DNA of 32,000 nt from Ferroglobus placidus DSM 10642 (GCF_000025505.1 NC_013849.1:1410001-1442000), one strand, 5' to 3'. Counted from the first letter of the stretch, positions 9,109 to 30,164 are shown. Translations and numbers: made by a program. Notes: generated from the sequence alone by a model not told the origin.

Positions 9109-10331
9109 TTTATTCTTCCCGCCCCTATCAACCTCCATCTCGTTCCAACTCTCCTGCTTATAGCTACTCTATCTCCTATTTCAGCACAAACCGGTCTTTT
9201 CAGCTTCACTTCTACGATGTCGTCTCTCGCGGAAGTAACGACTCCAAGAGTTATCGCCGTTCCGACAGCGAGCATTAAGGGCTCGTTCATCTTTATCTTC
9301 TCGACCTTTATCTCCTCCTCGGTCCCGACGACCCTCTCAAGTAATTGAACTTCCATTGTAAACTCGTAAAGAACGTCCGGCAGCTCGTTTGGATGTCCGA
9401 GCACATTACCTACGAGCCCGTCGCTTTTTGTTAGGAACGGATCGAGTTTCGTTGCAACTCCTATAAGTCCTCCGGGGGTAGCTTCTTCGATTTGCCTTCC
9501 GGAAGCCATTATGCTCACGACTTCCGTGTAAATCGGATTGTAATTTCCTCTTTCGTCTTTAACTCCGGGACGAATCTCTATTTCGTCTCCCACTCTCAAC
9601 TTTCCCCTCGCTAAGCTTCCACCTACAACTCCTCCGAGAAGTTTATCTGGAGGAGTTCCTGGTTTGTTTACGTCGAAGCTCCTCGCTATGTGCATGAGAG
9701 GAGGAGAAGTTAGATCTCTTTCTGGAGTGGGTATCGTCTCTTCTATCGCTTCGATGAGGGCATCTATGTTAACCTTCTGCTGGGCAGATATTGGAATTAT
9801 CGGGGCGTTTTCCGCTATGGTTCCTTTAACGAACTCCTTGATTTCTCTGTAATTTTCGAGAATTCTTTCCTTCGGAACGATGTCTATTTTGTTCTGGGCT
9901 ATTACGATTTTGTCAACTCCTATTATTTCGAGAGCCATTAAGTGCTCTTTTGTTTGCGGTCGAGGACACTTCTCGTTGGCTGCGATGACTAAGACTGCAC
10001 CGTCCATTAAAGCCGCACCGCTTAACATCGTTGCCATCAACGTCTCATGCCCGGGACTGTCGACGAAACTCACTGTTCTGAGAATTTCCGTCTCTACGTT
10101 ATGTTTTGGGCAAGTGACTTCGACCGTGTAAGCTTCCGGAGGTTCGCAAAGGGGGCATTTTCTGAAGGTTGCGTCAGCGTAACCCAGCTTTATAGAAATT
10201 CCCCTCTTTAACTCTTCGCTGTGTCTGTCCGTCCAAACTCCGCTTAAAGCGGCAACAAGGGTTGTTTTTCCGTGATCAACGTGACCAACCATTCCTATGT
10301 TAACTTCTGGAAGAGGAACGTCTTTCGACAT
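9105..10331 (-). CDS. eif2g: Translation initiation factor aIF2 gamma subunit
   Basis: 408 aa. GTPase motifs [14 protein letters not shown] and NKID, plus the Zn-knuckle region CPLCEPP...CPKH typical of a/eIF2-gamma. Confidence 0.95.
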
Positions 10332-10498
10332 ATTTTAATGAGGGGATTCGAGGATATTTAAATCTTGATATTGGTCCTGATTCCCTTAAATAATGCGAAT
10401 GTTAGAACAACAATCCTCAACGTCTCATCTCCAAATGACCCAGACAGAGAGCTTCTTCTGTTTTTCTTGCAAAGTAGATGTGCTAAGAAGGTAAAAAA

Positions 10499-10505
10499 TT
10501 TATAT
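10499..10505 (+). promoter_or_regulatory. Archaeal TATA box (TTTATAT) with an A-rich upstream BRE-like stretch, serving the DUF2298 gene
   Basis: The sequence gtaaaaaaTTTATATcttaacg lies about 22-25 nt upstream of the in-frame GTG at 10527. This is the spacing expected for a leaderless transcript. Confidence 0.4.
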
Positions 10506-10526
10506 CTTAACGAAAAACTTTTCAAA

Positions 10527-12458
10527 GTGTTCGAAATCGTAGCTTTCCTGCTGGTTGTTGAGATAATAGGTTTCTCAGCTTACCCCCTCCTCAGAAAAGA
10601 GTTTGGGGAAGAGGCTTATTCTCTAAGCAAACCGTTTGGACTTGCAATTTTAACAGCTGTGGCTTTGTCTTTCTCTTTAGCAGGACTCAATTTTTTCCTC
10701 TCTTCACTTCTTGCTTTAATTTCTCTTGTGATTCTCGCAGTGATCAATCGGGATGGCTTTTACTTTGAAGGGGAAACTTTTAAAGAAGAGCTGGTCTTCT
10801 TAATTTCTTACTCCCTTTCTCTGCTTTACCTTTCACTCAAACCCGAAATTTACTTCGCTTACTCCGAAGACTTTACGGACTTCGCTTTTCTCAAATCCGT
10901 TTTACGTTTCGGAATTTTGAAGGACCCTTGGTTCGGAGGAGAGCAGATTTTTTACTACTTCTTCGGGCACGCTTTAGCGGCTTCTCTCATAAAGCTTTCG
11001 AGAGTTAAAGCTGAAGTCGGTTACAATCTGGCTGTGGCAGCCTATTACTCTCTTGCAGTAACGCTATCATACTCTCTCGGGAAAAGAACGACTAAAAAAG
11101 ACATTTACGGAATTCTTTCAGCTCTCTTCGTTTGCTTTGCAGGATTCTTCTCCGGATTTTTCCAGCTTGTCGCATTTCTCTTCAAAACACCGATTCTTGG
11201 TTATAAAGTCGCTAATACGACCCTTTTTCAATGGCTTCTCAATTTCGACTTTTCAGCAGCGACGAGAGTAATTGATGGGGCTGTTGTGTTTTACCCCTTC
11301 TTCACATTTCTTCAGGGGGATATGCATGCGCACTTCATGTCGATTCCATTTCAGCTTGCCATTCTTCTCTCATCTCTCTCCTTATACACCAGCTTTTCAT
11401 CGAAGAAGTTTGCAACGACGACTTTTCTCTTCACCTTTACCCTCGGAATTAACGCATGGTCGTTTGTATTGGCTTTTCTTCTCATCCCAATTCTCTTGCT
11501 TAAGAGTAAACGTTTTGCGATTCTTTCTGTTTTCTTGGCAGTTTTCATAACTTTGCTCATCCTTACTGGAATTTTGAAGTTCGTCGAGTCGAGAACCGAG
11601 TTTTTTGACTTTCTTCAGGTTTTTGCTCTCTTTTTAGCTTCCACGATCCTTTACACTGCGAAAAAATTAGATTGGAAAGAATTTCTTCTGATACTCTTCT
11701 TCATCCCTCTTGGCTTACTTTTAAACTTTCACTTGCTCTTTCTCTTCCCTCTTGCGTTTTTATTGCTGAGGGAGAAGAGCTTTGAGAACATCTTGCTCTT
11801 TGCTGGAACATTAACTATCCTTTTCTGCGAGCTTTTCTACTTCGACGACCCCCTCGGAAAGCCATTCGAAAGAATGAACACCGTCATGAAGCTTTACATC
11901 TCAGCTTGGATTTTCTGGGGAGTTGCTTCGGCAATTCATCTATCGAAGCTCGGAAGAAGTGCTTTAGCCGTTCTCGCCGTTTTCGCGTTCTCTCTACTTC
12001 ATCCCGTCGCATCCCTTATTGCCATGCCTAACAGCGAGTTGCTCGGAAATAGCGGCAAAGTCACTTTGGACGGAGCCGAGTGGTTGAAGGAAAAGCATTT
12101 AGAAGAGTACCTCGCCATAAAATGGCTTGAAAACAAAAGCGGAGTTGTTCTCGAAGCTCCGGGGGAGGCTTACACTTATTCTTCGAGAGTTTCGACTTTC
12201 ACCGGCTTGCCCACCGTGATTGGCTGGAGAACTCACGAAATCATGTGGGGAAGGAGTTGGGAGGAAGTGGAGGAAAGAATAAAAGAAGTGGACGAAATCT
12301 ACCTTAACGGGAGCTTGGAGCTGGCTAAGAAGTACGGAGTTAGATACGTGTTTTTCGGAGAAGTTGAAAGGATTAGGTACGATAAGAGCGAGCTCGACTA
12401 TCCTTGGCTAAAAGTTGTTTTTAAAAAAGGAAACGTCACGATTTACGAAGTTCCCTGA
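10527..12458 (+). CDS. DUF2298 (chlor_Arch_YYY-type) polytopic membrane protein, putative GT-C-like glycosyltransferase
   Basis: About 15 or more TM helices, then the conserved C-terminal block YTYSSRVSTFTGLPTVIGWRTHEIMWGR...KKYGVRYVFFGEVERIRY. The track start (TTG 10365) adds 54 non-hydrophobic codons upstream of a TATA box, so GTG 10527 (VFEIVAFLLVVEIIGFSAYPLL) is preferred. Confidence 0.7.
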   Translation: MFEIVAFLLVVEIIGFSAYPLLRKEFGEEAYSLSKPFGLAILTAVALSFSLAGLNFFLSSLLALISLVILAVINRDGFYFEGETFKEELVFLISYSLSLLYLSLKPEIYFAYSEDFTDFAFLKSVLRFGILKDPWFGGEQIFYYFFGHALAASLIKLSRVKAEVGYNLAVAAYYSLAVTLSYSLGKRTTKKDIYGILSALFVCFAGFFSGFFQLVAFLFKTPILGYKVANTTLFQWLLNFDFSAATRVIDGAVVFYPFFTFLQGDMHAHFMSIPFQLAILLSSLSLYTSFSSKKFATTTFLFTFTLGINAWSFVLAFLLIPILLLKSKRFAILSVFLAVFITLLILTGILKFVESRTEFFDFLQVFALFLASTILYTAKKLDWKEFLLILFFIPLGLLLNFHLLFLFPLAFLLLREKSFENILLFAGTLTILFCELFYFDDPLGKPFERMNTVMKLYISAWIFWGVASAIHLSKLGRSALAVLAVFAFSLLHPVASLIAMPNSELLGNSGKVTLDGAEWLKEKHLEEYLAIKWLENKSGVVLEAPGEAYTYSSRVSTFTGLPTVIGWRTHEIMWGRSWEEVEERIKEVDEIYLNGSLELAKKYGVRYVFFGEVERIRYDKSELDYPWLKVVFKKGNVTIYEVP

Positions 12459-16822: not shown

Positions 16823-16870
16823 GAACGTTCATAACGAATATAAATTGTTTTTGTTCGATGAATCGAACAA
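16821..16870 (-). promoter_or_regulatory. tupA promoter: TATA box flanked by two palindromes (candidate operator sites)
   Basis: A perfect 12-bp palindrome ATGAACGTTCAT (16821-16832) overlaps the start codon. The minus-strand TATA TTTATATT lies at 16837-16844. A 20-bp imperfect palindrome TTGTTCGATgaATCGAACAA lies at 16851-16870. Confidence 0.4.
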
Positions 16871-17292
16871 CTTACGAAAGACCTCGAACAGCTTGGAACT
16901 GCTCTCTTTTGACGAGGCTTTGAGGAAGCTTGGTATAGATAAAGCTGAAATTCGAAAGGAAATTTCTAAAGAAACTGAGTAAACTTCTCAGAGAAGATCA
17001 AGTCAGAATTCTTGTCAAACTGAAAATCTTCGAGGAAACTGGCAGAGGAGATTTTGAGAGAATACTTTGAGTTTGGGTTTCTATAGATGTTGAGAGATAA
17101 TGCAAAAAACAAACCGATCTTCTTAGTTGATAGAACTCCTTGATACAAAGAGTGCTGCCAAGAAGAGGATTAAAGTACGAAATAAAGACGAGAGGAATGA
17201 GAAACGCTGTTGATTCCTGGATTCTTTTATTCATAGCACCGTACAATTTGAAGAGGAGTTTGGCATGGTTTTTCTCGTGCTACAAAACAAAA

Positions 17293-17300
17293 TTTAAAAA
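17293..17300 (+). promoter_or_regulatory. TATA box (TTTAAAAA) for the DUF499 gene
   Basis: It lies about 25 nt upstream of the ATG at 17325 with no Shine-Dalgarno sequence in between, consistent with a leaderless mRNA. Confidence 0.4.
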
Positions 17301-17324
17301 TTTTAATGAAATAGCAATAATTTG

Positions 17325-20258
17325 ATGACAGGAAACTGGCGCGCATTTAACGAAATTGAAAACGGTGAAATTACTGACGCTTCTTTTGTAGCGAACATAT
17401 GGAGAGTATACAAAGGCGACGCGGACATCGACGAGAGGTATAAAGATGCCAAGAAGTTTTTCGAGAGGACATTCATTTCAGAGGGATTAGAAAATGTGTT
17501 AAAGACAGCTATTGGAAGAGTTTTCGAAGGTAAAGGTGAACCGGTAATTTTGCTTCGAACAACCTTTGGAGGAGGAAAAACTCACACTCTAATAGCTATA
17601 TATCACGCTCTAAAGAACCCACAAACGATCTCAAAATATATCCAAGTACCTGAAAAACGTTTTTCACCCACGTTTGTTGCGTTTGACGGAAGAGAGTTAG
17701 ATTCTCACCGTTTAAAGGAATATTATGGAGCAAATAACTTGTGGCAATTCCTGATGAATGAAATTGCAAAAAAGAGCGGATTTAAAGAGTTTGAAAAAAT
17801 TTGCAGCGATTATTCGAACCCAAAGGAACCTCCAGGAAGTGAAGTGTTAAGAGAAGCATTTAGAAAACTTGAAGACTACGGTCATCCAGTCGTCTTTTTA
17901 CTCGATGAAGTCCCGGACTACATCAACAAATTGCAGTTAAAAGACGAAACTGAAGCTACAGCAGTTATACACTTTTTGGACTCCCTCGCTAACGCTGTAT
18001 CTCATTGCAAATACTCGCTCTTAGTTTTGGCAATACCCGAAATAAAAATGCTAACACAAATTAACGAAGAGATCGTAAGCAATCTGACTGAAAGAGTTGG
18101 TAGAGTTGCTATACCGAGAAACATCGTCGGGAAAAAAGATGCGGCTCACGTGTTAATACGTGCGTTAATCAAAAAAGTTGAAAGTGAGAGTCACAGAGAG
18201 ATTGACTCGCTCTACGAAGTTTACAAGAACAACACCAGGAGTTTTCCAGCGAGCATCTCTACAGCTGACTACCTCGAAAAGATGAGAGCTTATTATCCGT
18301 TCCATCCCCAATATATAGAAGTCCTGTACGACAAAATCGCCAGCCTTGAAACCTTTCAAAGCACGAGAGACATCTTAAGATTGACTGCTCACGTTTTACA
18401 CGTTCTTTGTAGAAAAGACCAGAGAAGGATGGTCTTTCTTTCCGACATAAACATGGCTGAAAAGAGCATAATAGACGAGTTCCTCGATAGGCACGGTTTT
18501 GCAAATCTTAGGCGAGCGATTGAAGTAGACCTTGAGGTTGTGAAAAAGTTAGATGAGGAGAACGTTAGACGAAATCTTCCAGCTATCTTTGTCCCGTTAT
18601 ACTCTTCTATAGCAGTTTACAGCGTAGCCGGTGAAGCTGCCTCGGTTAAGGATTTAACACTCGCAACAATAAAGCCTGGATTGCATCCAAACTACGTGTT
18701 GGGTGCATTGGAGCAGATGATGGAGTCAGATGTAGCTTACGTTTACAAGCTGACGGTAGACGGTGAAACGAAATACACTATTAAAGAGAGAATAAGTTGG
18801 GTTAGACTTGTTGATATAAAATCAAGAGACGTCAGCAATGAAGATGCGAGACAAGAGTTCGACAGTAGGTTTAATGAAGCTTTGAGAAGGTGGGGACGAA
18901 GTATATTTTCGATAGTCTCGCTTGCGAAATCTCCAAGGGATGTTAAAGATGATGAGATTTTGAAGCTCGTATTCTTGGATCCAAACGTAGTTAGAGACGA
19001 AGAAGAAACTCTGAATTTCTTTGCGATCTATTTTGATCCGGCTAAACAAGAACTCAGGAAGTTCAGGAATTCTGTTGTGTTTGCATTACCGGACCAAAGA
19101 GTATACTCGAAGAGTTTAGAAATTGCAAAGAAAATAATTGCTGCTCTGAGAATCAGGGAAGCTAAAGAAACTTACGGATTATCAGAAGAGGACATTGAGG
19201 AGTTAACAAAGCAGATCAATAAATGGAGGGAAGAACTAAAAGAGCGTGCAGCAGCAATTTACAGCAGAGTGGCGTATCCAATAGGCGGAAAAAATGGCGG
19301 AATCCGATTTGAAATTAAAACTGTAAATCACACTAATCCGGTTGAAGCTGCGGCAAAACTTCTTGAAAGAGAAGAGAAGGTGATAAGAGACATATCTGAA
19401 ACGTATTTGTTCAGGTTAGTTAACGAGTATTATGCAGCGATGGGGGATGTTGAATTAAAAATTAAAGAACTTTCTGAGTTTTTTGCAAGGGATCCAGAAA
19501 AACCGTATTTGCTGAAAGCAGCATCAATAGTTTCCGATAAAATTGCCGAACTTGTCGAAAACGGGAAAGTCGTAGTTTTGAAGGGTGGGAAAGTTTATGC
19601 ATATCAGAGAGTTAAAGTCGAGGAAGACGATGTCGTCATTCCAGGGAAGATTGCTGAGCAAAAAGGATTGTGCGTTGAATACGATGGAAAATTCATACCT
19701 CCGCCACCCTCTGAATTAGCTAAGCCAGTATGGGACGAAAAAAGCAGAAAGTGGGTTGAAGGAGAAGTAACAGTGGAAGAAAAGGCTGAAGTTGAGGAAA
19801 GGGGAGAGGAGGTCGAGGAAAAAGTTGAGATTGAAAAACCTAAGAAATTGAAGTTAGAAAATATAAACCTGCCAGAACTAATTGACGCCATTAAAGGAGA
19901 AAGTGGGACGTTTTTAGGTTTTGAAATCAGTGGAGAAGCAACGAAGGATGTGCAGAATACTATTAACTTCTTGAAGTCTTTGAGTGTTCAGTTGAAGAAG
20001 CTCGAACCAGAATTTTCTATATCCGCTGAAGTTGGAGACGGAGACAACATAGATCTCAGATTGACTGGAGATGTGAAAGTTAGCGGAATTAAAGAGGTCC
20101 TCACAATGCTCGAAAGACTTGGCTGCAGAAACATTAGGTATGAGATCGTAATCAGCGAAGCAAAAGCCGAAGACTTGCTCGAAAGCTTGGATGTAAAATT
20201 GTTAAGAGAGAAGTATCGAAAAGAGAAATTCAGCGTGAGTGCAAGGGTGAAAGAATGA
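17325..20258 (+). CDS. DUF499-family P-loop ATPase (COG1483; BrxC/PglY-related, anti-phage-associated)
   Basis: 977 aa from ATG 17325 (track TTG at 17322). The N-terminal block FVANIWRVYKGDA...YKDAKKFFERTFISEGLENVL...ILLRTTFGGGKTHTLIAIYHAL (Walker A) and LLDEVPDY (Walker B) are characteristic of DUF499. Confidence 0.85.
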   Translation: MTGNWRAFNEIENGEITDASFVANIWRVYKGDADIDERYKDAKKFFERTFISEGLENVLKTAIGRVFEGKGEPVILLRTTFGGGKTHTLIAIYHALKNPQTISKYIQVPEKRFSPTFVAFDGRELDSHRLKEYYGANNLWQFLMNEIAKKSGFKEFEKICSDYSNPKEPPGSEVLREAFRKLEDYGHPVVFLLDEVPDYINKLQLKDETEATAVIHFLDSLANAVSHCKYSLLVLAIPEIKMLTQINEEIVSNLTERVGRVAIPRNIVGKKDAAHVLIRALIKKVESESHREIDSLYEVYKNNTRSFPASISTADYLEKMRAYYPFHPQYIEVLYDKIASLETFQSTRDILRLTAHVLHVLCRKDQRRMVFLSDINMAEKSIIDEFLDRHGFANLRRAIEVDLEVVKKLDEENVRRNLPAIFVPLYSSIAVYSVAGEAASVKDLTLATIKPGLHPNYVLGALEQMMESDVAYVYKLTVDGETKYTIKERISWVRLVDIKSRDVSNEDARQEFDSRFNEALRRWGRSIFSIVSLAKSPRDVKDDEILKLVFLDPNVVRDEEETLNFFAIYFDPAKQELRKFRNSVVFALPDQRVYSKSLEIAKKIIAALRIREAKETYGLSEEDIEELTKQINKWREELKERAAAIYSRVAYPIGGKNGGIRFEIKTVNHTNPVEAAAKLLEREEKVIRDISETYLFRLVNEYYAAMGDVELKIKELSEFFARDPEKPYLLKAASIVSDKIAELVENGKVVVLKGGKVYAYQRVKVEEDDVVIPGKIAEQKGLCVEYDGKFIPPPPSELAKPVWDEKSRKWVEGEVTVEEKAEVEERGEEVEEKVEIEKPKKLKLENINLPELIDAIKGESGTFLGFEISGEATKDVQNTINFLKSLSVQLKKLEPEFSISAEVGDGDNIDLRLTGDVKVSGIKEVLTMLERLGCRNIRYEIVISEAKAEDLLESLDVKLLREKYRKEKFSVSARVKE

Positions 20259-20284
20259 ACATCTACTAAAAATGCTCTATTGTT

Positions 20285-22903
20285 TTATTCGTTTATGAAC
20301 TCGTCGAGCGTTTTGATTCTATCTTTCTTTATTCTTATCCCGTTCGGTCTGATTGACAGCATTAGCAATCCTTGAATGGCCATTTTTTCTTCATCTTCCG
20401 GCTCGCCTTCCGCAAGGATTAGCTCGAGGAATTTCGTTGTAACTTCGTCGAGTTTATATCCATGATCCTCAAGAACTTTAATCGCCTCGTGGGGTCCGTT
20501 CGATAAGTATGCTTTGAGACTCGAAGCAATCGCGTCTACCAACCACTTCCCTTCTCCTTTTATCTCCGTAAGAGGCTTTATCTTGTAAGCTTTCGTGCCG
20601 TCCTTTTTCTTTGAAGCTGACGTGTATTTTTCGATGAATTCTTCGTGATCGTAGTTTAGTCCGTAGGCGAGGTAGCGAAGGGAGTCGTATTCTGGTTCGC
20701 CGTAAACTACCCTCGCCATGAGATACATCGCCGTTGCCTGATCGAGAGGGGCTGAAACAAGCTTTTCGAGAACGAGTTTCGAAACTTCGCTCGAAGCAAA
20801 TTGCAAGATTTCTTCGAGATCAACTTTCCGCCCGTCGTACGTGTAGAGGGGCCAGTGCTTCCCGACAACTTCGAAAGCAGCACCCATCCCCATGAGGATA
20901 GCGTCGGAGTAACTCAGGTTGTAGTTAATCGTCCTTTCCACTTCCTTTTCGATCGCTTTTCTGACTTCAGCTCTCAGATTAGCGTCCCAAATCCCTTCAG
21001 TCTCCTTCTCCTTCGGTTTTAACCCGAGGACGAGCATAGTCTTTACGGCGGCTTTTCCAACTATGTGAATACTCCTCGGCTGTTCACTGGCAAATCCCCA
21101 GACGGCGAAGGGGATAAAGCCAGCGTCTAAGGCGGCGTTGAGCATGACTTTCAATCCTTTGAGGCTCCTGTGAGCATACATGAAGACCGCTATTCCATCT
21201 GGCTTTAGCGAAGCTTTTACAAGTTCCAGAACTTCTTTAAGGCTCGACTCGAACCATTTCTCGTCTCTCTTTCTGGTTTTGTTTACTACTATTTCATCCT
21301 CTTTCGGAGTCAGCTCAGTGGAGAACGCCTCTGGATAAAGGTGTCCTATGCTCCTCTTGTGCCAAACGTAGAAGAAGTCAGCGAGCTCCGAATACTGGAC
21401 GTTCGCGTAATAGGGAGGATCTGTTACAACGTAATCGAACTCTCCGAGTTCGAGATACAAACTTGGATCTTTAGCGTTGCCGAGAACGACTTTGACGTCT
21501 CCTTTCGCATCTTTTAGAAGGTTTACGATCTTTTTGAGGGCTGAAACCACTCCTACATTACTTAGCAATGCCCATTCCAATAAACAGTTTTTAGATAATA
21601 AATCTCCTTCAGCAAAGTCTTGGCCCATTCTATAAGCGTGCCGATTAAAAGTATCTCTAATTGACCCTTTGTTATAGGAATCCCAAGAAGTTAAGACTGA
21701 GTTGTAATCAAGCAGCTTTCCGTGGGCTAAAGCCAGATACGTCACGACAGCCTTTGCGTATTCTTCGTCTTCTCCCTCGTTTAAGATTTTTTCGTAAGCT
21801 TCTCTGATGAGTTTAACGATTGTTGCATGAGTCAAAAGCTGTCGAGCGTTGAAGAGCTTGTAGAACTTGTTTATACTCCTCAAAAGAACTTCTCTCGTTT
21901 TATCACCTTCAGGAATTTCCTCTGTGGGGATTAAATCTTTTTCAACGAATTCCTGCCACCTTTCTCTCAAGACCTCCCCAGCTCTCTTAGTAGCTTCAAC
22001 CATTTCGTCTGTTGGCTCCACGAATCTTCCATCGGAAAGTTTGACAGCTGCTAATATTGCAGGATGGTGTCCGTACATTTCTTCCTTCTCCCACCTGTCC
22101 ATTTCCATCCTGTATTGAGCAGACATCTCTTTGGAGGTTAACGTGTGCCCGTCAGGACAGTTCAAACTCTTAACCCCAGTTCCGACTTTATCACCCTCTC
22201 CTTTCACAACCCTAACAACTGGTCTCTCTCCGTCATAATCAAGTTTCAAAGCATACTTGTTCTCTTTAGACAAGATGGGGTGAGAAATTGCTGGAACGAG
22301 TTTTCCGCAGCGACATCTGTAAACCCTGATCCAGATGTAGTTTGCTGGTTCACCTTCTGGGTGCCTCGGGTAGTATTCTGCGAGCTCTTCTCTAACTCTT
22401 TCCAGCAACCACCTGCCCCACTTTTCGACATCTTTAACGAGCTTTTCTCTATACTTTAGGGGGTATTCGAGCGTTGCTTTTAGCAAAATGTAAGCTATCG
22501 GGTTGTATTCGACAGCCACGACCTCCTTAAATCCGAGTCTAAGAGCCTCGAAGGGAATTGATCCACCTCCGGCGAAAACGTCAAGTAGTCTCGCACTCTT
22601 AACGTCCGCATGCTCAAAAACCCAGTCTAAGTTTGGAGAGTAATTGTAAGCTGGTCTGTCGGGGCGTTTGTTTCTGTAAAGTAGGGAGACTGCCTGTTTA
22701 AACTCTTGAAGGAACTTTTTGTCCGGCTCTTTCTCAACTTTAACGGTTGAAGCAGCTATTGTAACTCTCGAGCCTATTAGGGGGCGGCGAGCCCACCAGA
22801 GGTGAAGGTAAAACATTGGTGGGGAAATAACTGCCCGTTCTCTAATCGATTCTTCAGAAGTCTCGAACGTCGGGAAGTAGTATTTGATAAGCCTTTCTGA
22901 CAT
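20285..22903 (-). CDS. DUF1156-family DNA methyltransferase with internal Zn-ribbon (COG1743)
   Basis: 872 aa. DUF1156 hallmark HLWWARRPL, SAM motif I LLDVFAGGGSIPFEA, Cys-ribbon YRCRCGK...LNCPDGH, catalytic motif IV VVTDPPYYANVQY. Confidence 0.9.
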   Translation of the reverse strand: MSERLIKYYFPTFETSEESIRERAVISPPMFYLHLWWARRPLIGSRVTIAASTVKVEKEPDKKFLQEFKQAVSLLYRNKRPDRPAYNYSPNLDWVFEHADVKSARLLDVFAGGGSIPFEALRLGFKEVVAVEYNPIAYILLKATLEYPLKYREKLVKDVEKWGRWLLERVREELAEYYPRHPEGEPANYIWIRVYRCRCGKLVPAISHPILSKENKYALKLDYDGERPVVRVVKGEGDKVGTGVKSLNCPDGHTLTSKEMSAQYRMEMDRWEKEEMYGHHPAILAAVKLSDGRFVEPTDEMVEATKRAGEVLRERWQEFVEKDLIPTEEIPEGDKTREVLLRSINKFYKLFNARQLLTHATIVKLIREAYEKILNEGEDEEYAKAVVTYLALAHGKLLDYNSVLTSWDSYNKGSIRDTFNRHAYRMGQDFAEGDLLSKNCLLEWALLSNVGVVSALKKIVNLLKDAKGDVKVVLGNAKDPSLYLELGEFDYVVTDPPYYANVQYSELADFFYVWHKRSIGHLYPEAFSTELTPKEDEIVVNKTRKRDEKWFESSLKEVLELVKASLKPDGIAVFMYAHRSLKGLKVMLNAALDAGFIPFAVWGFASEQPRSIHIVGKAAVKTMLVLGLKPKEKETEGIWDANLRAEVRKAIEKEVERTINYNLSYSDAILMGMGAAFEVVGKHWPLYTYDGRKVDLEEILQFASSEVSKLVLEKLVSAPLDQATAMYLMARVVYGEPEYDSLRYLAYGLNYDHEEFIEKYTSASKKKDGTKAYKIKPLTEIKGEGKWLVDAIASSLKAYLSNGPHEAIKVLEDHGYKLDEVTTKFLELILAEGEPEDEEKMAIQGLLMLSIRPNGIRIKKDRIKTLDEFINE

Positions 22904-22930: not shown

Positions 22931-24073
22931 TTAAAGACTCTTTAAAAAGCTTATGAGGTCGACACTCTTTAACTGCTTGACTTTCGTGAGTATTTTCAGC
23001 TTGCTACTATTTGCAACGAGCCTTTTGTTTGATACGTATTTCAGCACGTCTTCTTCCAGCGCAATTCTCACCCTTTCAGTTTCTATACCAATCTGCTCGT
23101 AGTTGAATAGCTTTTGAGCAGCCATTCTTTTCTTCTTGGATTGGGAAGTTAAAGTTTTGAGAGGGACTGCCGTATCTTCCGGATAAATTTCCTCAACTTC
23201 CTTTAACCCAACTTTCTGATAAGCGTAATCGTCTTTGTTGAACAGCCTTAAGTCGCTAATTTTTTCCTCTACTCCGTAATCCCTCGTCCCAAGGTGATTG
23301 TCTGCGATTGCATCGAGACCCAAACCGAAAGACAGAACATCTTGAGCTAAGATCTCACTGCTCTTTTTGCTCGGCTTTCCGATGTTAACGTTTACGCTGT
23401 AAATAAAAGCGTCAACGTCTTTTTGGTGGAGCAGGTTCTGTATCTGAGATATCTGCTGGTAATGAGTAAAGGGTGTTCGTCCAGCAAAATCCAAGCAAAA
23501 AGCTTTGATACCATGCTCAAAATACAGATCAAGGAGTTCGGAAATTTTGACTGGCGGCAGAGTTATAGGAATCAAACCCATTATCGGTTTTCTCTGCTTG
23601 GACCCCTCAGCTTTTTCAAGAAAACTCTCTACTATCGAGAAATACCTCTCAATGTCCTTTACGGTTGCGACTTTGTGAACTCTCTCGACAGTAGGAGGAA
23701 CGTAAAAATCGAAGACGCTCTCGGTATCTCTGATGAAATCCAATTCGGAATCGGTAACTTCAAACGTTTTTAACGCGGGAACGAAAATAATCGGTGTGCT
23801 TTTAGAAGGGACATTGTGTAAAGCTCTCTTGATGTCCTTATTCAGTCTGTCTCTGCTTTCAACCTTTCCCGACACGAGTTCGATTAGTTTCTCCTTAGTG
23901 AATGTCTTGTAAACTTCTCCAACGTATTCCTCCCAGTTCAGCTTAATATCTGACTTAAAGTATCTGAGGTTAATAGCTTTGATCGGAGTTTTGAAGCTTT
24001 TACCTCTGATTTTAACCTTCTTGTGAGAATAGAACGTCTTCTCGTCTTCTCTTACAACTTCAATTTTTAACAT
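22931..24073 (-). CDS. Hypothetical 380-aa protein, first gene of the operon with the DUF1156 methylase
   Basis: A long ORF with protein-like composition, ending 27 nt upstream of the methylase start on the same strand. It shows regular alternation of hydrophobic beta-like and amphipathic helix-like segments (PIIFVPAL / VFDFYVPP / PIMGLIPITL / IKAFCLDFAG / AFIYSVNVN / LDAIADNH). No family recognised. Confidence 0.75.
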   Translation of the reverse strand: MLKIEVVREDEKTFYSHKKVKIRGKSFKTPIKAINLRYFKSDIKLNWEEYVGEVYKTFTKEKLIELVSGKVESRDRLNKDIKRALHNVPSKSTPIIFVPALKTFEVTDSELDFIRDTESVFDFYVPPTVERVHKVATVKDIERYFSIVESFLEKAEGSKQRKPIMGLIPITLPPVKISELLDLYFEHGIKAFCLDFAGRTPFTHYQQISQIQNLLHQKDVDAFIYSVNVNIGKPSKKSSEILAQDVLSFGLGLDAIADNHLGTRDYGVEEKISDLRLFNKDDYAYQKVGLKEVEEIYPEDTAVPLKTLTSQSKKKRMAAQKLFNYEQIGIETERVRIALEEDVLKYVSNKRLVANSSKLKILTKVKQLKSVDLISFLKSL

Positions 24074-24112: not shown

Positions 24113-24706
24113 ATGGCTATTGAAGCGGATCATTTGAAACATCTGAGCCCAATACAAGCTCTTATTCTATTGCTGCTTGACAGCGAAAACGCTCAACCAG
24201 TTAAAGGAAGAACTTGGCTTCAGAAGGAGATGTTCCTAATATTAAGCAATGCTGGCAAAGAAATTGAAGAAGAGGCACAGTTCGAACCTCACCACTTTGG
24301 ACCCTACAGCGAGGTCGTGGAGTCAGAATTAGCGAATCTAAAATTACTTGGACTTGTGGACGAAAATAAAGAGATACGGATAACTAAGGCTGGTAAAAAG
24401 ATTGCAGCAGAACTGAGAAAATACGTCAGCCCGAAATTTCTTGAGTTCATATCCCAAGTGAAAAGAGAACTAAATGATCTTACCGAAGACGAGTTGCTCG
24501 CCTATATATACTTTACTTTCCCCGAAATGACGAGCGAATCGAAAGCCTTAGAGAGAATTTTAAAGAAGAGGAAGTGGCTTGCTTTATCGCTCTATCGAAA
24601 AGGAAAAGTCAGCTTATCTAAAGCATCACAAATCGCTGGCGTAAGTGTTAGCGAGTTCTCTAAATTTTTAAGAAGTAAAAATATTGGGGTCTCTCTGGGG
24701 TGGTAA
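24113..24706 (+). CDS. Composite antitoxin: N-terminal Panacea/DUF4065-like plus winged-helix region fused to a C-terminal UPF0175 (COG2886) antitoxin domain
   Basis: 197 aa. N-terminal part: WLQKEMFLIL...FEPHHFGPYSEVVESEL (LQK..F / F.p..yGPy pattern of the SocA/Panacea domain) and LKLLGLVDENKEIRITKAGKKI (wing). C-terminal part: ALSLYRKGKVSLSKASQIAGVSVSEFSKFLRSKNIGVSL, a typical UPF0175 domain. Confidence 0.65.
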   Translation: MAIEADHLKHLSPIQALILLLLDSENAQPVKGRTWLQKEMFLILSNAGKEIEEEAQFEPHHFGPYSEVVESELANLKLLGLVDENKEIRITKAGKKIAAELRKYVSPKFLEFISQVKRELNDLTEDELLAYIYFTFPEMTSESKALERILKKRKWLALSLYRKGKVSLSKASQIAGVSVSEFSKFLRSKNIGVSLGW

Positions 24707-25199
24707 CATCCCGGAGAGCTTAATTTTGGATACAAGCGTGCTTATTGCGTTTTATTCAGAGCTGGCTCGTCCGGAATTGCTGTTATCTCTCCACGATCAT
24801 GGTTTTCGCTTGTATGTCCCTAAAGCCGTGTATGAGGAATTTATGGATGACGTAAACTTCAAACATTTAGAGACTCACGTAAAAAACGGATATTATACGA
24901 TACTCGGGAATATTCCCGAAAACGATGTTTACAGACTTAAACTGAAGTTCCCAAGTCTTGGAGATGGCGAAATTGAAGTTATCTGGTGGGGGCTAAAGTT
25001 TGAGAACTGTTTTTGCGTGTTGGACGATAAAAAAGCTAACAAGAGCGCAAAAAGCATGGGCTTGAAAGTAACTGGAACAATAGGTATTTTGCGGATTTTG
25101 GCTGAAATGGGGGTTATAAGTGAGAGTGAAAAGCGAAAATTGTGTGTAGAATTAATTGAGCGCGGATTTCGATTTCCGAAAGAGAAGTGTTTCGAGTAG
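24684..25199 (+). CDS. PIN-domain toxin, DUF3368/COG2405 type
   Basis: LILDTSVLIAF, YEEF, GDGEIEVIWWG, CVLDDKKANKSAKSMGLKVTGTIGILRIL match the COG2405 PIN family that partners UPF0175. The start is ambiguous: TTG 24684 (23-nt overlap with the antitoxin) or TTG 24726. Confidence 0.8.
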   Translation: MGSLWGGNIPESLILDTSVLIAFYSELARPELLLSLHDHGFRLYVPKAVYEEFMDDVNFKHLETHVKNGYYTILGNIPENDVYRLKLKFPSLGDGEIEVIWWGLKFENCFCVLDDKKANKSAKSMGLKVTGTIGILRILAEMGVISESEKRKLCVELIERGFRFPKEKCFE

Positions 25200-25210
25200 T
25201 AATTTATTTA

Positions 25211-25246
25211 TCGATCAGATTTTGATTAATACATAATGCTGATCGA
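25211..25246 (+). promoter_or_regulatory. 8-bp inverted repeat TCGATCAG / CTGATCGA bracketing the start of the nuclease gene, just downstream of a TATA box
   Basis: Arms at 25211-25218 and 25239-25246. The TATA-like TTTATTTA at 25203-25210 lies about 27 nt upstream of ATG 25236. Confidence 0.3.
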
Positions 25247-26912
25247 AGACCACATTAAGAATCTGACAAAGCAAGAAGGTTGTGCTAAAGCAGCATCTGA
25301 AATTTTAAGTAGAACAGCACACTTGATAAAAGCAAGAAGTGTCGCTTACGGAGCTGCTCATTGTATTTTCAAGGCTCGTCTCGTCGAAGCGTTTGGGGCG
25401 AGTGGTTTCTTTCAGAGCATAATCCCCGGAAAAGGTAATCTCGTTCACCAAATCCTCGCTATTGCTTTTCCTCGAGCGTTCGTCGATAAAATAAAAAGAA
25501 ATTTGCAAGAACTCAAATACTACGTTGACGAAGCTGAAAAACTCTTAGAAGAATATGGAATGATTTCTGATCCTTCTCCAAATCTAATCTCTACAGCAAA
25601 AAATGAGTCTCTGACAATGCTAAAACACGCTTTAAAAGTCATTCCAGAAATAGCGGAAAAAATAGGATTGGAACTCGAGAGAGCGAGAGTTTACGCAGAA
25701 ATGCAGTTGATGAGTTACAAACTTCACGTTTGGGGTGTAATCGACGCACTCGTCGAAGATAGGATTAATAGAAAAGCAATCGTGATTGACTGGAAGACTG
25801 GGCATCAACTTGAAAGTAAGGCTGCACAAATAAGTGATCCAGACATAGCCCAGGTTTGCTGCTACGCGTTACTTGAAGCTGATAGACTCGAATTTGAAGA
25901 TCCAAGAAAACCAGTTTTAGAAGGAGAGATCGTTCCCTTAATTATCAGACCCCGCGGAAATATACCAGTGGCGAGTATAAGCCCAGTATACGAAACTATG
26001 AAGAGAAGGACAACCTTAGAGGAATACCTCAATAACATAATCTTGGCAGCAGAGCACCTGACTCTCGTCTTAAGTAACGTAAGAAGACTTATAGGACCAA
26101 CTTTCGAGAATATATGTAAATTTAAAACTCGGCAAGGCAGAAGAGCAAGCGCTTTTCGATATACTCCCTACAACCTGCCAAAAGGAAACCCAAAGACCAA
26201 TAGTTACCGATGCAAAATATGTGGATTAACTGAGGAATGTCTTTTCTACATAGGAAGCTACGAAGAACCCGAAGAGATTGATAGACTCGCTTGGAGGTCG
26301 AGATACGCAATTTATGCGATAAGAGAGAACGCACTAATGCCCTACAAGGAAATCCACGAAAAAATAAGTTACTATAATTTCGACGTTAGGAGTTTTGAGC
26401 AAGGAGAAACTTTCACACTCGAAAGTGGAAACAGAATAGACGTGTTTAGCGATGCTGAAGCATCTGAAGACGGAATAATCCTTAGAAGAGAAGTTAGAGA
26501 AAGAGAAATAAGAGAGGAGAGGATAATTTCGGTAAGAGAAGGTAGGCCAGTGGCAGTTTTTTTCTACGAGGACGTTAAAAGCCCCTTACTAAGGTTGAGC
26601 TTCGTCGGTAGGGTTGACGAATTTCAGCAGGAGGAAGATGAAGTCTCTATTCTTGTAAGCGCACCGAACATCCCCTCAAGGCTACACCATATCCTCTTCA
26701 AGTTTTACCTTGAAAATTGGAGAGATCTGACACTCAGCATACTGGCTGTCGAGACAAACGTAGATTTGACACAAATGGAACTCAGGGCGATAGACGCTTT
26801 TCAGAGAGGAACAAAAAGGATGAAAGAAAAACTCTATAATCTTGAAGAGAACTTAGAAAATCTCAAAAATGAAGCTCTTGCCATACTCTTTGGTTCTCTA
26901 CCTTTGAGGTGA
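25236..26912 (+). CDS. Cas4/RecB-family PD-(D/E)XK nuclease with Fe-S Cys cluster, plus a C-terminal beta-barrel/stalk-like region (N-terminal half of a split Dna2-like protein)
   Basis: 558 aa. Motif order: AAHC...R, GNLVHQIL, E(MQL), GVIDALVED, IVIDWKTG (D-x-K), QVCCYALL (QhxxY), then CKICGLTEEC (C-x2-C-x5-C). The remaining roughly 210 aa are strand-rich (ETFTLESGNRIDVF...RPVAVFFYED...LSFVGRVDEF...VSILVSAP) and end in a helical tail. Confidence 0.8.
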   Translation: MLIEDHIKNLTKQEGCAKAASEILSRTAHLIKARSVAYGAAHCIFKARLVEAFGASGFFQSIIPGKGNLVHQILAIAFPRAFVDKIKRNLQELKYYVDEAEKLLEEYGMISDPSPNLISTAKNESLTMLKHALKVIPEIAEKIGLELERARVYAEMQLMSYKLHVWGVIDALVEDRINRKAIVIDWKTGHQLESKAAQISDPDIAQVCCYALLEADRLEFEDPRKPVLEGEIVPLIIRPRGNIPVASISPVYETMKRRTTLEEYLNNIILAAEHLTLVLSNVRRLIGPTFENICKFKTRQGRRASAFRYTPYNLPKGNPKTNSYRCKICGLTEECLFYIGSYEEPEEIDRLAWRSRYAIYAIRENALMPYKEIHEKISYYNFDVRSFEQGETFTLESGNRIDVFSDAEASEDGIILRREVREREIREERIISVREGRPVAVFFYEDVKSPLLRLSFVGRVDEFQQEEDEVSILVSAPNIPSRLHHILFKFYLENWRDLTLSILAVETNVDLTQMELRAIDAFQRGTKRMKEKLYNLEENLENLKNEALAILFGSLPLR

Positions 26913-26916
26913 GCGT

Positions 26917-28428
26917 ATGGCAATCTACTATCTTGATGATGGCTTGAAAGAAGCTTTTAGATTGGCAAAAAGAAAAGAAAAGTGGGCACTACTTGAATCT
27001 CAGAAAAAAGCTACAGAACTCATGAAAAAGACTGTTGATGGTGAACTTAGCCTTGCAGCAGTTCAAGGACCTCCGGGGACAGGCAAAACAAGTGTTGTCG
27101 AAGCTTTTGCCAAGGAAGAGTTACCAGATTTCGTAACACAATCAGAAAACGAGCTAATTTTGTATATTGCTCCAACGAATCACCTCGTTTATGAAGCTTT
27201 CAAGAGAATTTCAGCCCAATTAATCAAAAAAGGATTTGATATCCAGTCTCTCTTGAGCGTTGTGCGAGTATACGGTTCGAAAATTAAACCTATGAAGGAA
27301 AAAGAGGTGATAATCGGAGATAAAAAACTCGAGAGAGACGATCTAAATAGACTCGTGAGCAACGTAGATAACAATGTCCGGATAATTTTTGCGACAGAAT
27401 TCCAGAGAGTTTCAAGTAGACTTGAAGTTGAACCAAAAAGGATACACATAGTTGCTGACGAGGCAAGTAAGTCTCCATATTTCAGAGTTTTTCTACCTTT
27501 AGCTGAAAAAATAGCTAAGAATCCAGAAGAATACTATCCTTACACTCTCCTCGTTCTTGGAGATCCACAACAGGCAATTACAGTTCCAGAGGAGTTTACT
27601 ATAATGGATGTCCCGCTTCTCATGAAATTAACAGAGAGAGTTCTCAAAGAGAACGACTTGAAAAAAGATTGTTGGGTTATGCTCGACACGACCTTCAGAC
27701 TACCACGTCCTTCAGAAGACCCTATAAGCCACGGATTTTATAGAGGAAAACTACATGCGCACTATACCTCAAGAGAACGATTAGAGATTATTAAAGACTC
27801 GATATTAGACAACATCAGCAGAATTACTTCTGCGCTTGACAAAGCGGGTGTTCGAGCAACTTCACTTGACGTTAAAAAGATCGTTGACGGAATAGAGGAG
27901 GCTATAACTTCTAACATTCCGATAGTCGTTGTAAAAACTCGTCCTTTTAAGAGTGGAGACACTTACGACGAAGAGCGCGTTAAAAAGGCATTTATAATTT
28001 CCTCTATTTTTCAATTGGCATCTCACTTTTCTGGATATAGTTTCAGCGTAACTACTACTGCTCCATACTGTGATATCGTTGATTCAATAGCATTTAAATT
28101 TCACAGAAGATTTCACAACTTTGGATCGATACGAGCACCGAGGGCAGTTACCGTGCAATCACTTATAGGGGGAGAGAGCGATGTCATTGTGGCTCCACTC
28201 GGTAAAGAGTGGTTACCAAGTGAGATTCGTTACCACCCTTCGGAAGAATTTACAACAATATACGCAAGAGAACCGGAATTGCTTAACGTTCAAATGAGCA
28301 GACATCGATCACTTATGGTTGTAATTGGCAATACTGACAGATTAATGAACCAGAGAGAAAGAAGGATTCAAAGGACTGTAGAAAGGTTGGAAGAGCTTGA
28401 AGGTAAAGGAACTTTAATTATCTCTTAG
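26917..28428 (+). CDS. SF1B helicase, Dna2/Upf1-like (AAA_11/AAA_12 type)
   Basis: 503 aa. Motifs: I VQGPPGTGKTS; Ia YIAPTNHLV; II IVADEASKS; III LVLGDPQQ; IV LDTTFRLPRPSEDPISHGFYRGKL; V VTVQSLIGGESDVIV; VI LLNVQMSRHRSLMVVIGN. A GAGGTGA Shine-Dalgarno sequence spans the upstream stop, and the gap is 4 nt. Confidence 0.9.
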   Translation: MAIYYLDDGLKEAFRLAKRKEKWALLESQKKATELMKKTVDGELSLAAVQGPPGTGKTSVVEAFAKEELPDFVTQSENELILYIAPTNHLVYEAFKRISAQLIKKGFDIQSLLSVVRVYGSKIKPMKEKEVIIGDKKLERDDLNRLVSNVDNNVRIIFATEFQRVSSRLEVEPKRIHIVADEASKSPYFRVFLPLAEKIAKNPEEYYPYTLLVLGDPQQAITVPEEFTIMDVPLLMKLTERVLKENDLKKDCWVMLDTTFRLPRPSEDPISHGFYRGKLHAHYTSRERLEIIKDSILDNISRITSALDKAGVRATSLDVKKIVDGIEEAITSNIPIVVVKTRPFKSGDTYDEERVKKAFIISSIFQLASHFSGYSFSVTTTAPYCDIVDSIAFKFHRRFHNFGSIRAPRAVTVQSLIGGESDVIVAPLGKEWLPSEIRYHPSEEFTTIYAREPELLNVQMSRHRSLMVVIGNTDRLMNQRERRIQRTVERLEELEGKGTLIIS

Positions 28429-29544
28429 CTCTTAGTCTAATTAAATATAGCCCTTTGCCCTTACCCCTCAATCCGAGCAACCTCAATTCTGCTTTTAAAC
28501 CGAAATCCTCAGCAATTCGTTTCAAAAATTCGTGTGTTGGGATGTATGTCCCTTTGAATATTGAATCTCCTATTGTATACCAAGCTTCCCATGCGAGTCT
28601 CTCCGAAACGAGTTCTAAATGTCTCTCCATATAGTAGAAGTATTGGGATAGAAACACATGGTATTTTCTGTCACTCCTGATCTCAAAAATTTTGTCTAAA
28701 ATCCATTTTCTTTCAGTCTTTTTTTCCATTTTCTCGCACTCGCTTCGCATGCCGGGATTTGCAAACTTCTGAGCATTCCAAGATCCTTGGAATCTTTAGC
28801 CAATCCAGCCCAAAGTATGTGTAGCTGTGTATGTCTTATGTAGTCTATGTTATTTGCAAATGGCGGACTTGTCAAAATACCGTCAAATGCTTTTGGTAAC
28901 CAAACGCTTGAGTCAGCTAAAACTAAATCAATATTTCCATCATTTCCGTAGCATTCCAAATCTGAATATGCCTGAAGAAACAACTCTTTGAACTCTTCGA
29001 AAATTTTATGCTTACTCGATTTACAAACAATCTTTCGATACCTTGGAGCGGGGGATTTCCTTAACCTTGAATATTTTTCAGCAACTTTCGCTAAAATCGT
29101 TAACAAAAGACTATCGTTCTTGAAATCGTTAATAAGGGATCTTATTTTGCCTAACGCTTCCAATTGGGTGGGTGAATGGTAGTTCTTTAATCTTTCTGAT
29201 GGGATTAACATCTTGTAGTCATCGATATTTGAGTAAGCTTCTAAGAACTCTTTTTTATCCAAACGAGGTTTGTCTACTTTTGATTTTGTTACAAGAAGTG
29301 ACCAAGGGTTCGAATCGATGCCTACACAATCAATACCTCTTTTTTTCGCCTCTACAGCGACAGTCCCTGAGCCGACAAAAGGGTCTAATACGAGATTGCC
29401 ACGACTTTTACTAAATTCTTGAAAAAATTCGTTAACCAATTGCTTAGTCATTCCATGTTCGCAGAATACTAAAATTCTGTGTATTCGTTCGTTTTTCCAA
29501 GGATTTCTTGGAAAACGGTTTTCTTGCATGAGGTCCCGTATCAC
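28418..29544 (-). pseudogene. DNA methyltransferase (motif I ... motif IV order, SPPF catalytic motif) split by a frameshift at an A7 tract; a pseudogene or a slippage-dependent gene
   Basis: ORF 28696..29544 (282 aa) starts at GTG 29544, preceded by GGAGGGTG. It carries VLDPFVGSGTVAVEA (SAM motif I) and ILTSPPFANNIDY (motif IV). ORF 28418..28750 (110 aa) reads like the missing C-terminal MTase core (RKYHVFLSQYFYYMERHLELVSERL...GDSIFKGTYIP...IAEDFGLKAE). The frames overlap at 28696-28750 around T7/A7 at 28719-28725. One extra A would fuse them into about 375 aa. Confidence 0.75.
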
Positions 29545-29832: not shown

Positions 29833-30066
29833 CGTGACTGTCTGGCAAATAAATCTGCGAACTTTTCGAGTTCGTGTATTCTCAGGAACATCCCTCTCTG
29901 CATGTTCGAGTATGCACTCTCGGCATATATAGTACTTTTGGAAAATTTATATAAATTCATGAAAAATGCTCTAAATCTACAAACCTTAATTTCGCTTAAA
30001 TTTGGCAAATTAGCTCTCAAAATCACCAATTGGTTGAAAACAGGTAGGATTTACTCGAAATTTTGA

Positions 30067-30139
30067 TGGGTCCGCCCGGATTCGAACCGGGGACCTCCTG
30101 CGTGTGAGGCAGGCGTCATAACCACTAGACCACGGACCC
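30067..30139 (-). tRNA. tRNA-Val (anticodon CAC)
   Basis: The minus strand reads GGGTCCGTGGTCTAGTGGTTATGACGCCTGCCTCACACGCAGGAGGTCCCCGGTTCGAATCCGGGCGGACCCA. It folds as a cloverleaf: 7-bp acceptor GGGTCCG/CGGACCC, anticodon stem CCTGC/GCAGG with loop CTCACAC, T arm CCCGG-TTCGAAT-CCGGG, discriminator A. No CCA is encoded. Confidence 0.92.
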
Positions 30140-30164
30140 AGCAGTACTGTGTTTTACTCTTAGC

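Follow-up and report, generated by a model that had tools for sequence, protein, structure and literature searches.

A candidate two-subunit nuclease-helicase effector of Dna2-like architecture beside a DUF499/DUF1156 core in Ferroglobus placidus

BREX-related and Hma defence systems are widespread, and the way in which they destroy invader DNA is unclear. A DUF499 ATPase and a DUF1156 methyltransferase (MTase) form the core of the system listed as 'Hma' in PADLOC, for which Rakesh & Krishnan (NAR 2026, PMC12839542) introduced the name 'DUF499-centred BREX-related (BR) systems'. All three BR types described so far contain, as their third core part, a Swi2/Snf2 helicase of superfamily 2 (SF2), which is fused to a PD-(D/E)XK restriction endonuclease (REase) in type 1 and to an HKD nuclease in type 2, and is accompanied by PglZ in type 3 (PMC12839542). 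Descriptions of these systems, with HmaA as the Snf2 helicase-nuclease alongside HmaB and HmaC, are given in PMC12839542, 10.1101/2024.01.29.577857 and PMC11232893. In 62.7% of Hma systems, unrelated defence genes are found among the core genes (Payne et al., 10.1101/2024.01.29.577857), and the same embedding behaviour of Hma/BR systems is reported in PMC12839542. Cas4-like (pfam12705) nucleases have also been linked to UvrD-like helicases of superfamily 1A (SF1A) or YprA-like SF2 helicases in restriction-modification (R-M) and defence contexts (PMC5704561), so that the general theme of Cas4-like nucleases and helicases linked to R-M genes is already known. Here we describe a locus within a 32,000-nucleotide (nt) stretch of Ferroglobus placidus DSM 10642 (GCF_000025505.1, NC_013849.1:1410001-1442000; this whole stretch is called the window, and positions are counted from its first letter), in which DUF499 and DUF1156 genes are found together with NUC and HEL, two adjacent genes encoding an Fe-S nuclease and a superfamily 1B (SF1B) helicase. 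We consider it probable that NUC and HEL constitute a two-subunit effector of Dna2 architecture in a modification-based defence system, in which the pair would replace HmaA; a role in replication is not favoured.

NUC, the first open reading frame (ORF1; 558 amino acids (aa), 25236-26912, + strand), which is 100% identical to an F. placidus database entry named 'conserved hypothetical protein', is an Fe-S RecB/Cas4-type PD-(D/E)XK nuclease. It is laid out as a nuclease region (approximately residues 1-345), a putative stalk helix, a beta-rich, barrel-like domain (approximately residues 400-506) and C-terminal helices (residues 512-552), a layout equivalent to the N-terminal half of Dna2. The first-pass annotation of this DNA, made from the sequence alone, had read the full Cas4/RecB motif series with C-x2-C-x5-C cysteines in this frame, and both are borne out by a Pfam match to PDDEXK_1 (E=9.4e-10, 39.3 bits, cutoff 22) and by the invariant residues of the family; matches to AddA and to Cas4 are weak, the Cas4 model TIGR00372 giving 17.9 bits where the cutoff is 65. 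Across 22 aligned family members, the alignment shows E155, D170 (25743-25745), K187 of the (D/E)185-x-K187 motif (D185-W-K187, 25788-25796) and Q206-xxx-Y210 (25851-25865) to be invariant, the catalytic motifs from D170 to Y210 occupying 25743-25865 on the + strand. Equally invariant are C43 (25362-25364) and the triad C326-x2-C329-x5-C335 (26211-26240, + strand). This C...Cx2Cx5C pattern is the Fe-S motif of Cas4, AddB and Dna2, and NUC is predicted from its sequence to carry a 4Fe-4S cluster with C43 as the fourth ligand. The same catalytic and cysteine residues are kept in homologs from Thermoplasma, Stygiolobus and Sulfurisphaera with about 27% identity, and these distant alignments cover residues 15 to 547 or so, i.e. 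the nuclease, the beta-rich domain and the helical tail. Further residues of NUC, namely C16 (25281-25283), C294 (26115-26117), H29, H71 and H164, are retained without exception down to the most distant homologs, while H274 is invariant in the closer family and is a tyrosine in the Sulfolobales; these additional cysteines and histidines hint at a second metal site or a structural feature outside the Cas4 motif set.

The AlphaFold2 (AF2) model of NUC (pLDDT 86.2, pTM 0.89) contains a nuclease core, a long helix at residues 347-380, seven beta-strands within residues 400-506 and helices at residues 512-552, and so reproduces the strand-rich region and helical tail that the first reading had proposed. 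When this model was compared with the PDB using Foldseek, the only strong matches were to mouse Dna2 (5eax_A, E=6.6e-9, probability 1.0), over an alignment of 567 columns with a TM-score of 0.44 normalised to the query. The next matches, with E values of about 3e-3 or weaker, were to senataxin (SETX), AddB, MGME1 and Cas4; senataxin is an Upf1-like helicase with a barrel and stalk. At the sequence level, a search of the PDB with NUC alone returned no match, and the NUC family profile matched no PDB entry at E<=10.

HEL, the second frame (ORF2; 503 aa, 26917-28428, + strand), is an Upf1-like SF1B motor consisting of two RecA domains. Pfam matches were obtained to AAA_11 (E=5.4e-11, 43.2 bits, cutoff 27) and, just under the same cutoff of 27, to AAA_12 (E=3.6e-5, 23.9 bits). 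The helicase motifs are invariant or nearly so in 61 members: motif I (GPPGTGKT, residues 51-58, 27067-27090), Ia, II (DEAS, residues 181-184, 27457-27468), III (GDPQQA), IV (R261), V and VI (NVQxSRH, residues 457-463, 28285-28305), all on the + strand. The AF2 model of HEL (pLDDT 93.9) has as its best Foldseek match in the PDB the helicase half of Dna2 (5eaw_A, E=6.9e-16, TM-score 0.61), followed by SETX, IGHMBP2, Sen1, nsp13 and Upf1, with E values for the fold matches of 1e-13 to 1e-16. The HEL family profile detected Upf1 (1.7e-13), as well as Sen1, SETX and Aquarius, among PDB sequences, with no Dna2 match at E<=1e-3. Thus the AAA_11 match, the motifs and the fold matches agree with the earlier description of ORF2 as a bare SF1B motor with motifs I-VI, and the Dna2 domain order suggested there is recovered in that Dna2 is the best Foldseek match of each half. 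Two other PADLOC matches to HEL were rejected: Mokosh MkoA (2e-16), where only the Upf1-like motor is in common and the PLD/MkoB partner is absent, and MADS mad8 (1e-4), which is marginal. A contig scan with the helicase alignment was dominated by the generic P-loop pattern and yielded only three irrelevant bacterial loci (L010-L012; related loci are designated by L numbers, and coordinates given with them are those of the locus concerned).

The two genes are coupled at a junction (26904-26919, + strand) in which GAGGTGA lies over the NUC stop codon TGA (26910-26912) and a 4-nt spacer precedes the HEL ATG (26917). The junction sequence is ttg agg TGA gcgt ATG, with NUC and HEL in different frames, and the frame coordinates, the Shine-Dalgarno sequence across the stop and the 4-nt gap were all as first annotated. 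Wherever a fetched locus continues beyond the NUC gene, HEL lies directly 3' of NUC. In 20 of 21 loci the NUC stop and the HEL start are separated by -20 to +12 nt; a Shine-Dalgarno-like core is likewise present upstream of HEL in 20 of the 21. The annotation had called for a search for fused homologs, and none was found. An exhaustive HMMER search of 1.84 billion representative proteins with the NUC family profile recovered 100 relatives, in which full-length NUC matches measure 535-736 aa and none contains a helicase; likewise, no fusion exists among 108 HEL homologs, all of which are 575 aa or shorter. With 100 representative clusters in this set, the NUC-HEL family is rare and patchy. Its loci are non-syntenic and lie in variable islands, and the flanking genes differ in every locus, which indicates horizontal mobility. 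Split forms of individual genes also occur: NUC in L026 (377-1872, + strand) is divided into 147 aa and 350 aa, and the DUF1156 MTase in L003 and L004 into 648 aa and 271 aa (L003 7326-9949, - strand). Such split components in metagenomic relatives are either assembly or frameshift errors or signs of frequent cassette decay.

A third gene accompanies the pair. Convergent with HEL, and overlapping it by 11 nt, is a small DNA MTase gene (28418-29544, - strand; Pfam N6_N4_Mtase/MethyltransfD12) with motifs I (FVGSGT) and IV (TSPPF). In the closer clade, each of the 18 informative loci has an MTase of about 370 aa that follows HEL in convergent orientation; in 13 of 17 loci the 3' end of this MTase gene overlaps HEL by 4-23 nt. 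The small MTase family is as small and as sharply bounded as the NUC and HEL families, with at least 19 contigs, matched by their exact lengths, common to the small MTase and NUC/HEL matches. In the relatives it is a single frame of 366-434 aa. In F. placidus, a -1 frameshift in an A7 run at about 28716-28728 divides it into 282 aa (28696-29544) and 110 aa (28418-28750), and A8 instead of A7 would restore the frame W-K-K-K-T-E-R-K-W-I-L of the relatives. Possible explanations are an error in sequencing the homopolymer, slippage during transcription or phase variation, and true decay of the gene.

Beyond this triad of NUC, HEL and small MTase, the window contains the DUF1156 and DUF499 genes of a BR core. 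The DUF1156 N6-adenine MTase (HmaB/BR-MTase, 872 aa, 20285-22903, - strand) was identified by Pfam DUF1156 (1e-8) and by PADLOC HmaB (4.5e-54) and MTase_II (8.4e-66), and the DUF499 AAA+/STAND-type ATPase (HmaC/BR ATPase, 978 aa, 17322-20258, + strand) by PADLOC HmaC (7e-66) and DUF499 (1.1e-22). Among the related loci, the DUF1156 MTase adjoins the triad in about 14 of 17-18 that are informative, upstream and divergent in some and downstream in others, and most of these also have the DUF499 ATPase, which accompanies the DUF1156 gene wherever the contig reaches. DUF499 homologs were found in the window and in L001, L003, L005, L007, L009, L016, L019 and L029, and they form two divergent lineages, scoring >340 bits and about 90 bits, respectively, against the protein of the window; this divergence suggests that the association with BR is not a single inherited accident. 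No Snf2-type protein was found in the window or in any related locus, and the SF1B/Fe-S-nuclease pair is the sole helicase-nuclease in these BR-core loci. Since every BR core seen here lacks the Swi2/Snf2 HmaA, the split Dna2-like pair most likely fills the HmaA role. No entry for Ferroglobus or Staphylothermus was present in the BR-survey supplements searched. The first annotation had treated the pair itself as the unit; the coupling is real, and the functional unit appears to be larger, with a dedicated MTase and usually the DUF499/DUF1156 core.

Embedded genes are also present between the triad and the BR core. In L001, a pair comprising an OLD-type ABC ATPase and a TOPRIM-like protein (9446-11327, + strand) lies between the triad and the DUF1156/DUF499 genes, and in F. 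placidus a 380-aa orphan and a UPF0175/PIN pair of the PDC-S70 type lie between the DUF1156 gene and NUC. Such embedding is what one would expect of a single system made up of the triad and the BR core. L001 also encodes a second, canonical Upf1-like SF1 helicase of 596 aa (2539-4329, - strand; AAA_11 6e-41, AAA_12 1e-49), divergent and upstream of NUC.

Distant relatives have a different modification partner. HEL homologs with about 30% identity were found in Thermoplasma acidophilum, Stygiolobus caldivivus and Sulfurisphaera ohwakuensis (cassettes at L030 8095-14030, L031 3736-14621 and L032 3566-14424), each preceded by an overlapping or abutting NUC homolog. The convergent partner in these three is not the small MTase but a DndC-like PAPS-reductase/PP-loop protein (PADLOC DndC, 2e-23 to 1e-34). 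A related PAPS-reductase gene of 260 aa is found divergently upstream in the two Sulfolobales, and that of Stygiolobus scores as SspD-like (1.6e-16). The Sulfolobales cassette consists of unknown 361-aa and 589-aa genes, the 260-aa PAPS-reductase gene, NUC followed by HEL, the convergent 398-aa DndC-like gene and an unknown gene of 474-495 aa; that of Thermoplasma consists of NUC followed by HEL, an unknown 403-aa gene and the DndC-like gene. None of the restriction components DndFGH, SspE and Pbe was recognised in these DndC-linked relatives, and the Sulfolobales/Thermoplasma cassette may be an undescribed phosphorothioation-type defence system. Throughout the known range of the pair, at about 27-100% identity, a modification gene is found beside it, and its chemistry varies. 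This constant linkage with changing chemistry provides the strongest argument that the pair is the restriction or effector arm of a modification-based discrimination between self and non-self.

Starting from the observed domain identities, catalytic residues, fold matches, gene coupling, lack of fusions and conserved neighbourhoods, we propose that NUC and HEL would be co-translated from one operon and would assemble in the Dna2 order: an Fe-S PD-(D/E)XK nuclease, a stalk and beta-barrel, and an SF1B motor of 5'->3' polarity. The stalk/barrel of NUC may dock on RecA1 of HEL, as it does in cis within Dna2. One or more methyltransferases would mark host DNA, while the DUF499 ATPase and/or the methyltransferase would detect unmodified invader DNA and license or load NUC-HEL. 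The SF1B motor would then move 5'->3' along single-stranded DNA and feed the Fe-S nuclease, and the invader genome would be destroyed. The partner modification gene in this scheme would be the MTase of about 370 aa in the Ferroglobus clade and the DndC-like PP-loop enzyme in Sulfolobales and Thermoplasma; the polarity, the substrate and the modification-dependent discrimination are its presumptive parts.

Several points weigh against this scheme. The published survey of BR systems reports Snf2 helicases only (PMC12839542), so that the replacement of Snf2 by the pair is something that we infer from gene content. Likewise putative are the heterodimer of NUC and HEL and its binding to, or cooperation with, the DUF499 and DUF1156 proteins. 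Dna2-type enzymes require free 5' single-stranded ends, and the scheme provides no source of such ends on invading double-stranded DNA. The frameshifted MTase of F. placidus, if real, is hard to reconcile with a simple R-M system in which that MTase is the sole protector; should the frameshift reflect real decay, either protection has to come from the DUF1156 enzyme alone or the lack of this mark does not by itself set off the effector. Finally, the triad occurs without a BR core in L008/L021, where 10 kb upstream and approximately 5-6 kb downstream are visible, and in the 8.9-kb L014, which makes the link to BR frequent and not obligatory.

These last loci are what would be expected if the triad were a self-contained Type III-like R-M system, with the small MTase as Mod, the split pair as Res, and DUF499 and DUF1156 as mere neighbours. 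The small MTase is indeed the tightest partner of the pair, by its presence in 18 of 18 loci, its overlapping 3' ends and its co-distributed small family, and the shifting position of DUF1156, upstream-divergent or downstream, would also fit such an arrangement. We nevertheless regard it as unlikely, since the adjacency of DUF1156 in about 14 of 17-18 informative loci, across two divergent BR lineages, is far above island co-occurrence, the BR cores here are without the helicase-nuclease that the published BR/Hma systems require, the stretch between the triad and the BR core harbours other defence genes, as is also seen inside single Hma systems, and in F. placidus it is the small MTase that is frameshifted while NUC and HEL are intact.

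The replacement of the small MTase by a DndC-like gene at the same position bears on a second alternative, that the pair is a stand-alone immunity module resembling Nhi, which alone would sense and degrade viral replication intermediates, the modification genes being irrelevant. The content of a nuclease and an SF1B helicase does parallel that of Nhi, which works alone (10.1101/776245), and there are weak PADLOC matches to Nhi and AbiO (1.4e-4 and 5.8e-4). However, a modification gene is strictly conserved beside the pair through that very swap, and the likeness to Nhi proposed by the first-pass annotation did not hold. Nhi (SERP2475) is a single chain of 606 aa, found in bacteria only, with an N-terminal HsdR-like nuclease and a DUF2075/Dda-like motor; it has no Fe-S cysteines and no barrel or stalk, and it works without modification genes (10.1101/776245). 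HEL matches PF09848 only at E=0.038 (13.7 bits, cutoff 24) and the PADLOC Nhi model only at 18.7 bits, over residues 22-203. We thus think it improbable that NUC and HEL act in this way.

That the pair is a housekeeping archaeal enzyme of Dna2 type, which processes Okazaki fragments or the ends of double-strand breaks and lies in a variable region by chance, is very improbable, for although Dna2 is the best fold match of both halves and, in L003, a NurA-HerA-Mre11-Rad50 operon and a Cdc6/Orc gene (16831-21656; no other locus has this, and the proximity is probably coincidental) are situated within a few kb of the cassette, the family is extremely rare, is constantly linked to DNA-modification and defence genes, has no detected sequence-level relationship to Dna2 and occupies here a low-GC island beside a tRNA gene, and its patchy, non-syntenic loci are not those of a universally conserved Dna2 ortholog, the case that the first annotation had named as fatal to its proposal.

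We therefore retain as our preferred explanation a two-subunit effector that takes the place of HmaA. A wider reading, which we hold to be somewhat short of probable, is that the never-fused Dna2-architecture pair is an ancient and portable archaeal 'restriction motor', combined with an MTase and a BR core in Archaeoglobales and Desulfurococcales and with DndC/SspD-like enzymes in Sulfolobales and Thermoplasmatales, and representing a new BR/Hma subtype and possibly a new phosphorothioation-type system. The BR subtypes described so far all use an Snf2 helicase, with or without a fused nuclease; an unrelated motor in that position, if true, would mean that effectors are interchangeable on a sensing and modifying core of DUF499 and DUF1156. 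Since the replacement is structurally well understood (Dna2-like, SF1B, Fe-S nuclease), the effector step would become experimentally accessible. The link to DndC/SspD-like genes in the genetically tractable Sulfolobales points to an uncharacterised modification-dependent defence in model archaea, and the existence in a prokaryote of two chains that together seem to complete the Dna2 domain order bears on the origin of eukaryotic Dna2.

The genes described above lie in an island at approximately 17.3-30 kb of the window with a GC content of 0.35-0.42, compared with 0.44-0.46 in the flanks, which contain archaeal housekeeping genes such as those for eIF2-gamma and SRP54. Pfam and PADLOC searches identified HmaC/DUF499, HmaB/DUF1156, the PDC-S70 toxin-antitoxin pair and a further MTase as its defence genes, in keeping with the first description of the region as a defence island; no cas genes were found in the window or in the related loci. 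At the right edge of the island, with its 3' end facing it, is a tRNA-Val(CAC) gene (30065-30140, - strand; ARAGORN), which suggests a possible target of tRNA-directed integration, and a repeat search found no att repeat or partial copy of tRNA-Val at the left island border. A tblastn search against phages and plasmids gave no match to the pair, and PHROG and BFVD matches were to generic Cas4-type exonucleases only and were limited to the nuclease core; a viral or plasmid origin was therefore rejected for want of evidence.

Between the DUF1156 gene and NUC, the 380-aa orphan (22931-24073, - strand) lies upstream of the DUF1156 MTase and is without a match in Pfam, PADLOC and PHROGs, and none of about 30 related loci has a homolog of it; by 'guilt-by-embedding' it is a defence candidate. 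It is followed by a UPF0175/Abi_alpha antitoxin-like gene (24113-24706, + strand) and, overlapping this by 23 nt, a PIN/DUF3368 toxin-like gene (24684-25199, + strand), together the PADLOC candidate PDC-S70. Neither the orphan nor the UPF0175/PIN genes are present in the homologous loci. The putative NUC-HEL promoter (25200-25235, + strand) contains a TATA-like, A/T-rich TTTATTTA at about 25203-25210, approximately 30 nt 5' of the NUC ATG. From general knowledge of archaeal promoters, this spacing suggests that the NUC-HEL operon is transcribed from a promoter of its own, giving an mRNA that is leaderless or nearly so, with NUC as its first cistron.

Of the known systems, Dna2 (mouse, PDB 5EAX/5EAW/5EAN) has the same order and folds as the pair: a RecB-type nuclease with a four-cysteine Fe-S motif and an SF1B motor, with a beta-barrel and stalk in Dna2 to which the beta-rich domain and helices of NUC would correspond. 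However, Dna2 is a single polypeptide, universal and linked to replication, whereas the pair is made of two chains, rare, patchy and linked to defence, has no detectable sequence homology to Dna2, and contains no OB or RPA-interaction region. Because it is split, lacks this homology and is not housekeeping, the pair resembles Dna2 in fold and architecture only and is not a member of the Dna2 family. With Nhi it shares a PD-(D/E)XK nuclease, an SF1B helicase and a defence role; the hidden Markov model (HMM) similarity is marginal, and the pair is not a member of Nhi. Nor is NUC a CRISPR Cas4, which is about 200 aa long and accompanied by cas1 and cas2, while NUC has 558 aa and falls below the TIGR00372 cutoff. 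The systems of PMC5704561 likewise have a Cas4/RecB Fe-S nuclease paired with or fused to a helicase and R-M genes nearby, but their helicases are of the UvrD type (3'->5', SF1A) or of SF2 and are often fused, whereas here the helicase is SF1B, Upf1-like and never fused, and the putative barrel and stalk are of Dna2 type. The literature searched contained no description of a never-fused SF1B version with Dna2 architecture or of its association with BR and DndC-like genes.

Type III R-M systems also couple an MTase genetically to an ATP-dependent helicase-nuclease, with presumed self-protection by modification. In these systems one SF2 helicase, Res, bears the nuclease at its C terminus, whereas this locus has an SF1B motor, and a separate upstream gene encodes the Fe-S nuclease with its barrel-like domain and putative stalk. 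As for the Dnd and Ssp systems (DndC, SspD with DndFGH, SspE, PbeABCD), the pair sits beside or between DndC- and SspD-like PP-loop genes in the relatives but not in the window, and NUC-HEL would be a different restriction partner for such genes. The closest system is BR/Hma, with which the locus has in common a DUF499 ATPase with an adjacent DUF1156 MTase, an effector that combines a helicase with a PD-(D/E)XK nuclease, and embedded defence genes. In BR/Hma the helicase is Swi2/Snf2, while here it is Upf1-like SF1B without TUDOR or inactive-REase domains; the nuclease here is of the Fe-S Cas4/RecB type and on a separate chain, there is an extra small MTase, and the triad may occur without the core. 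The locus therefore possesses two of the three components that define BR/Hma, carries the SF1B pair and no Snf2 protein, and is effectively a candidate fourth BR subtype.

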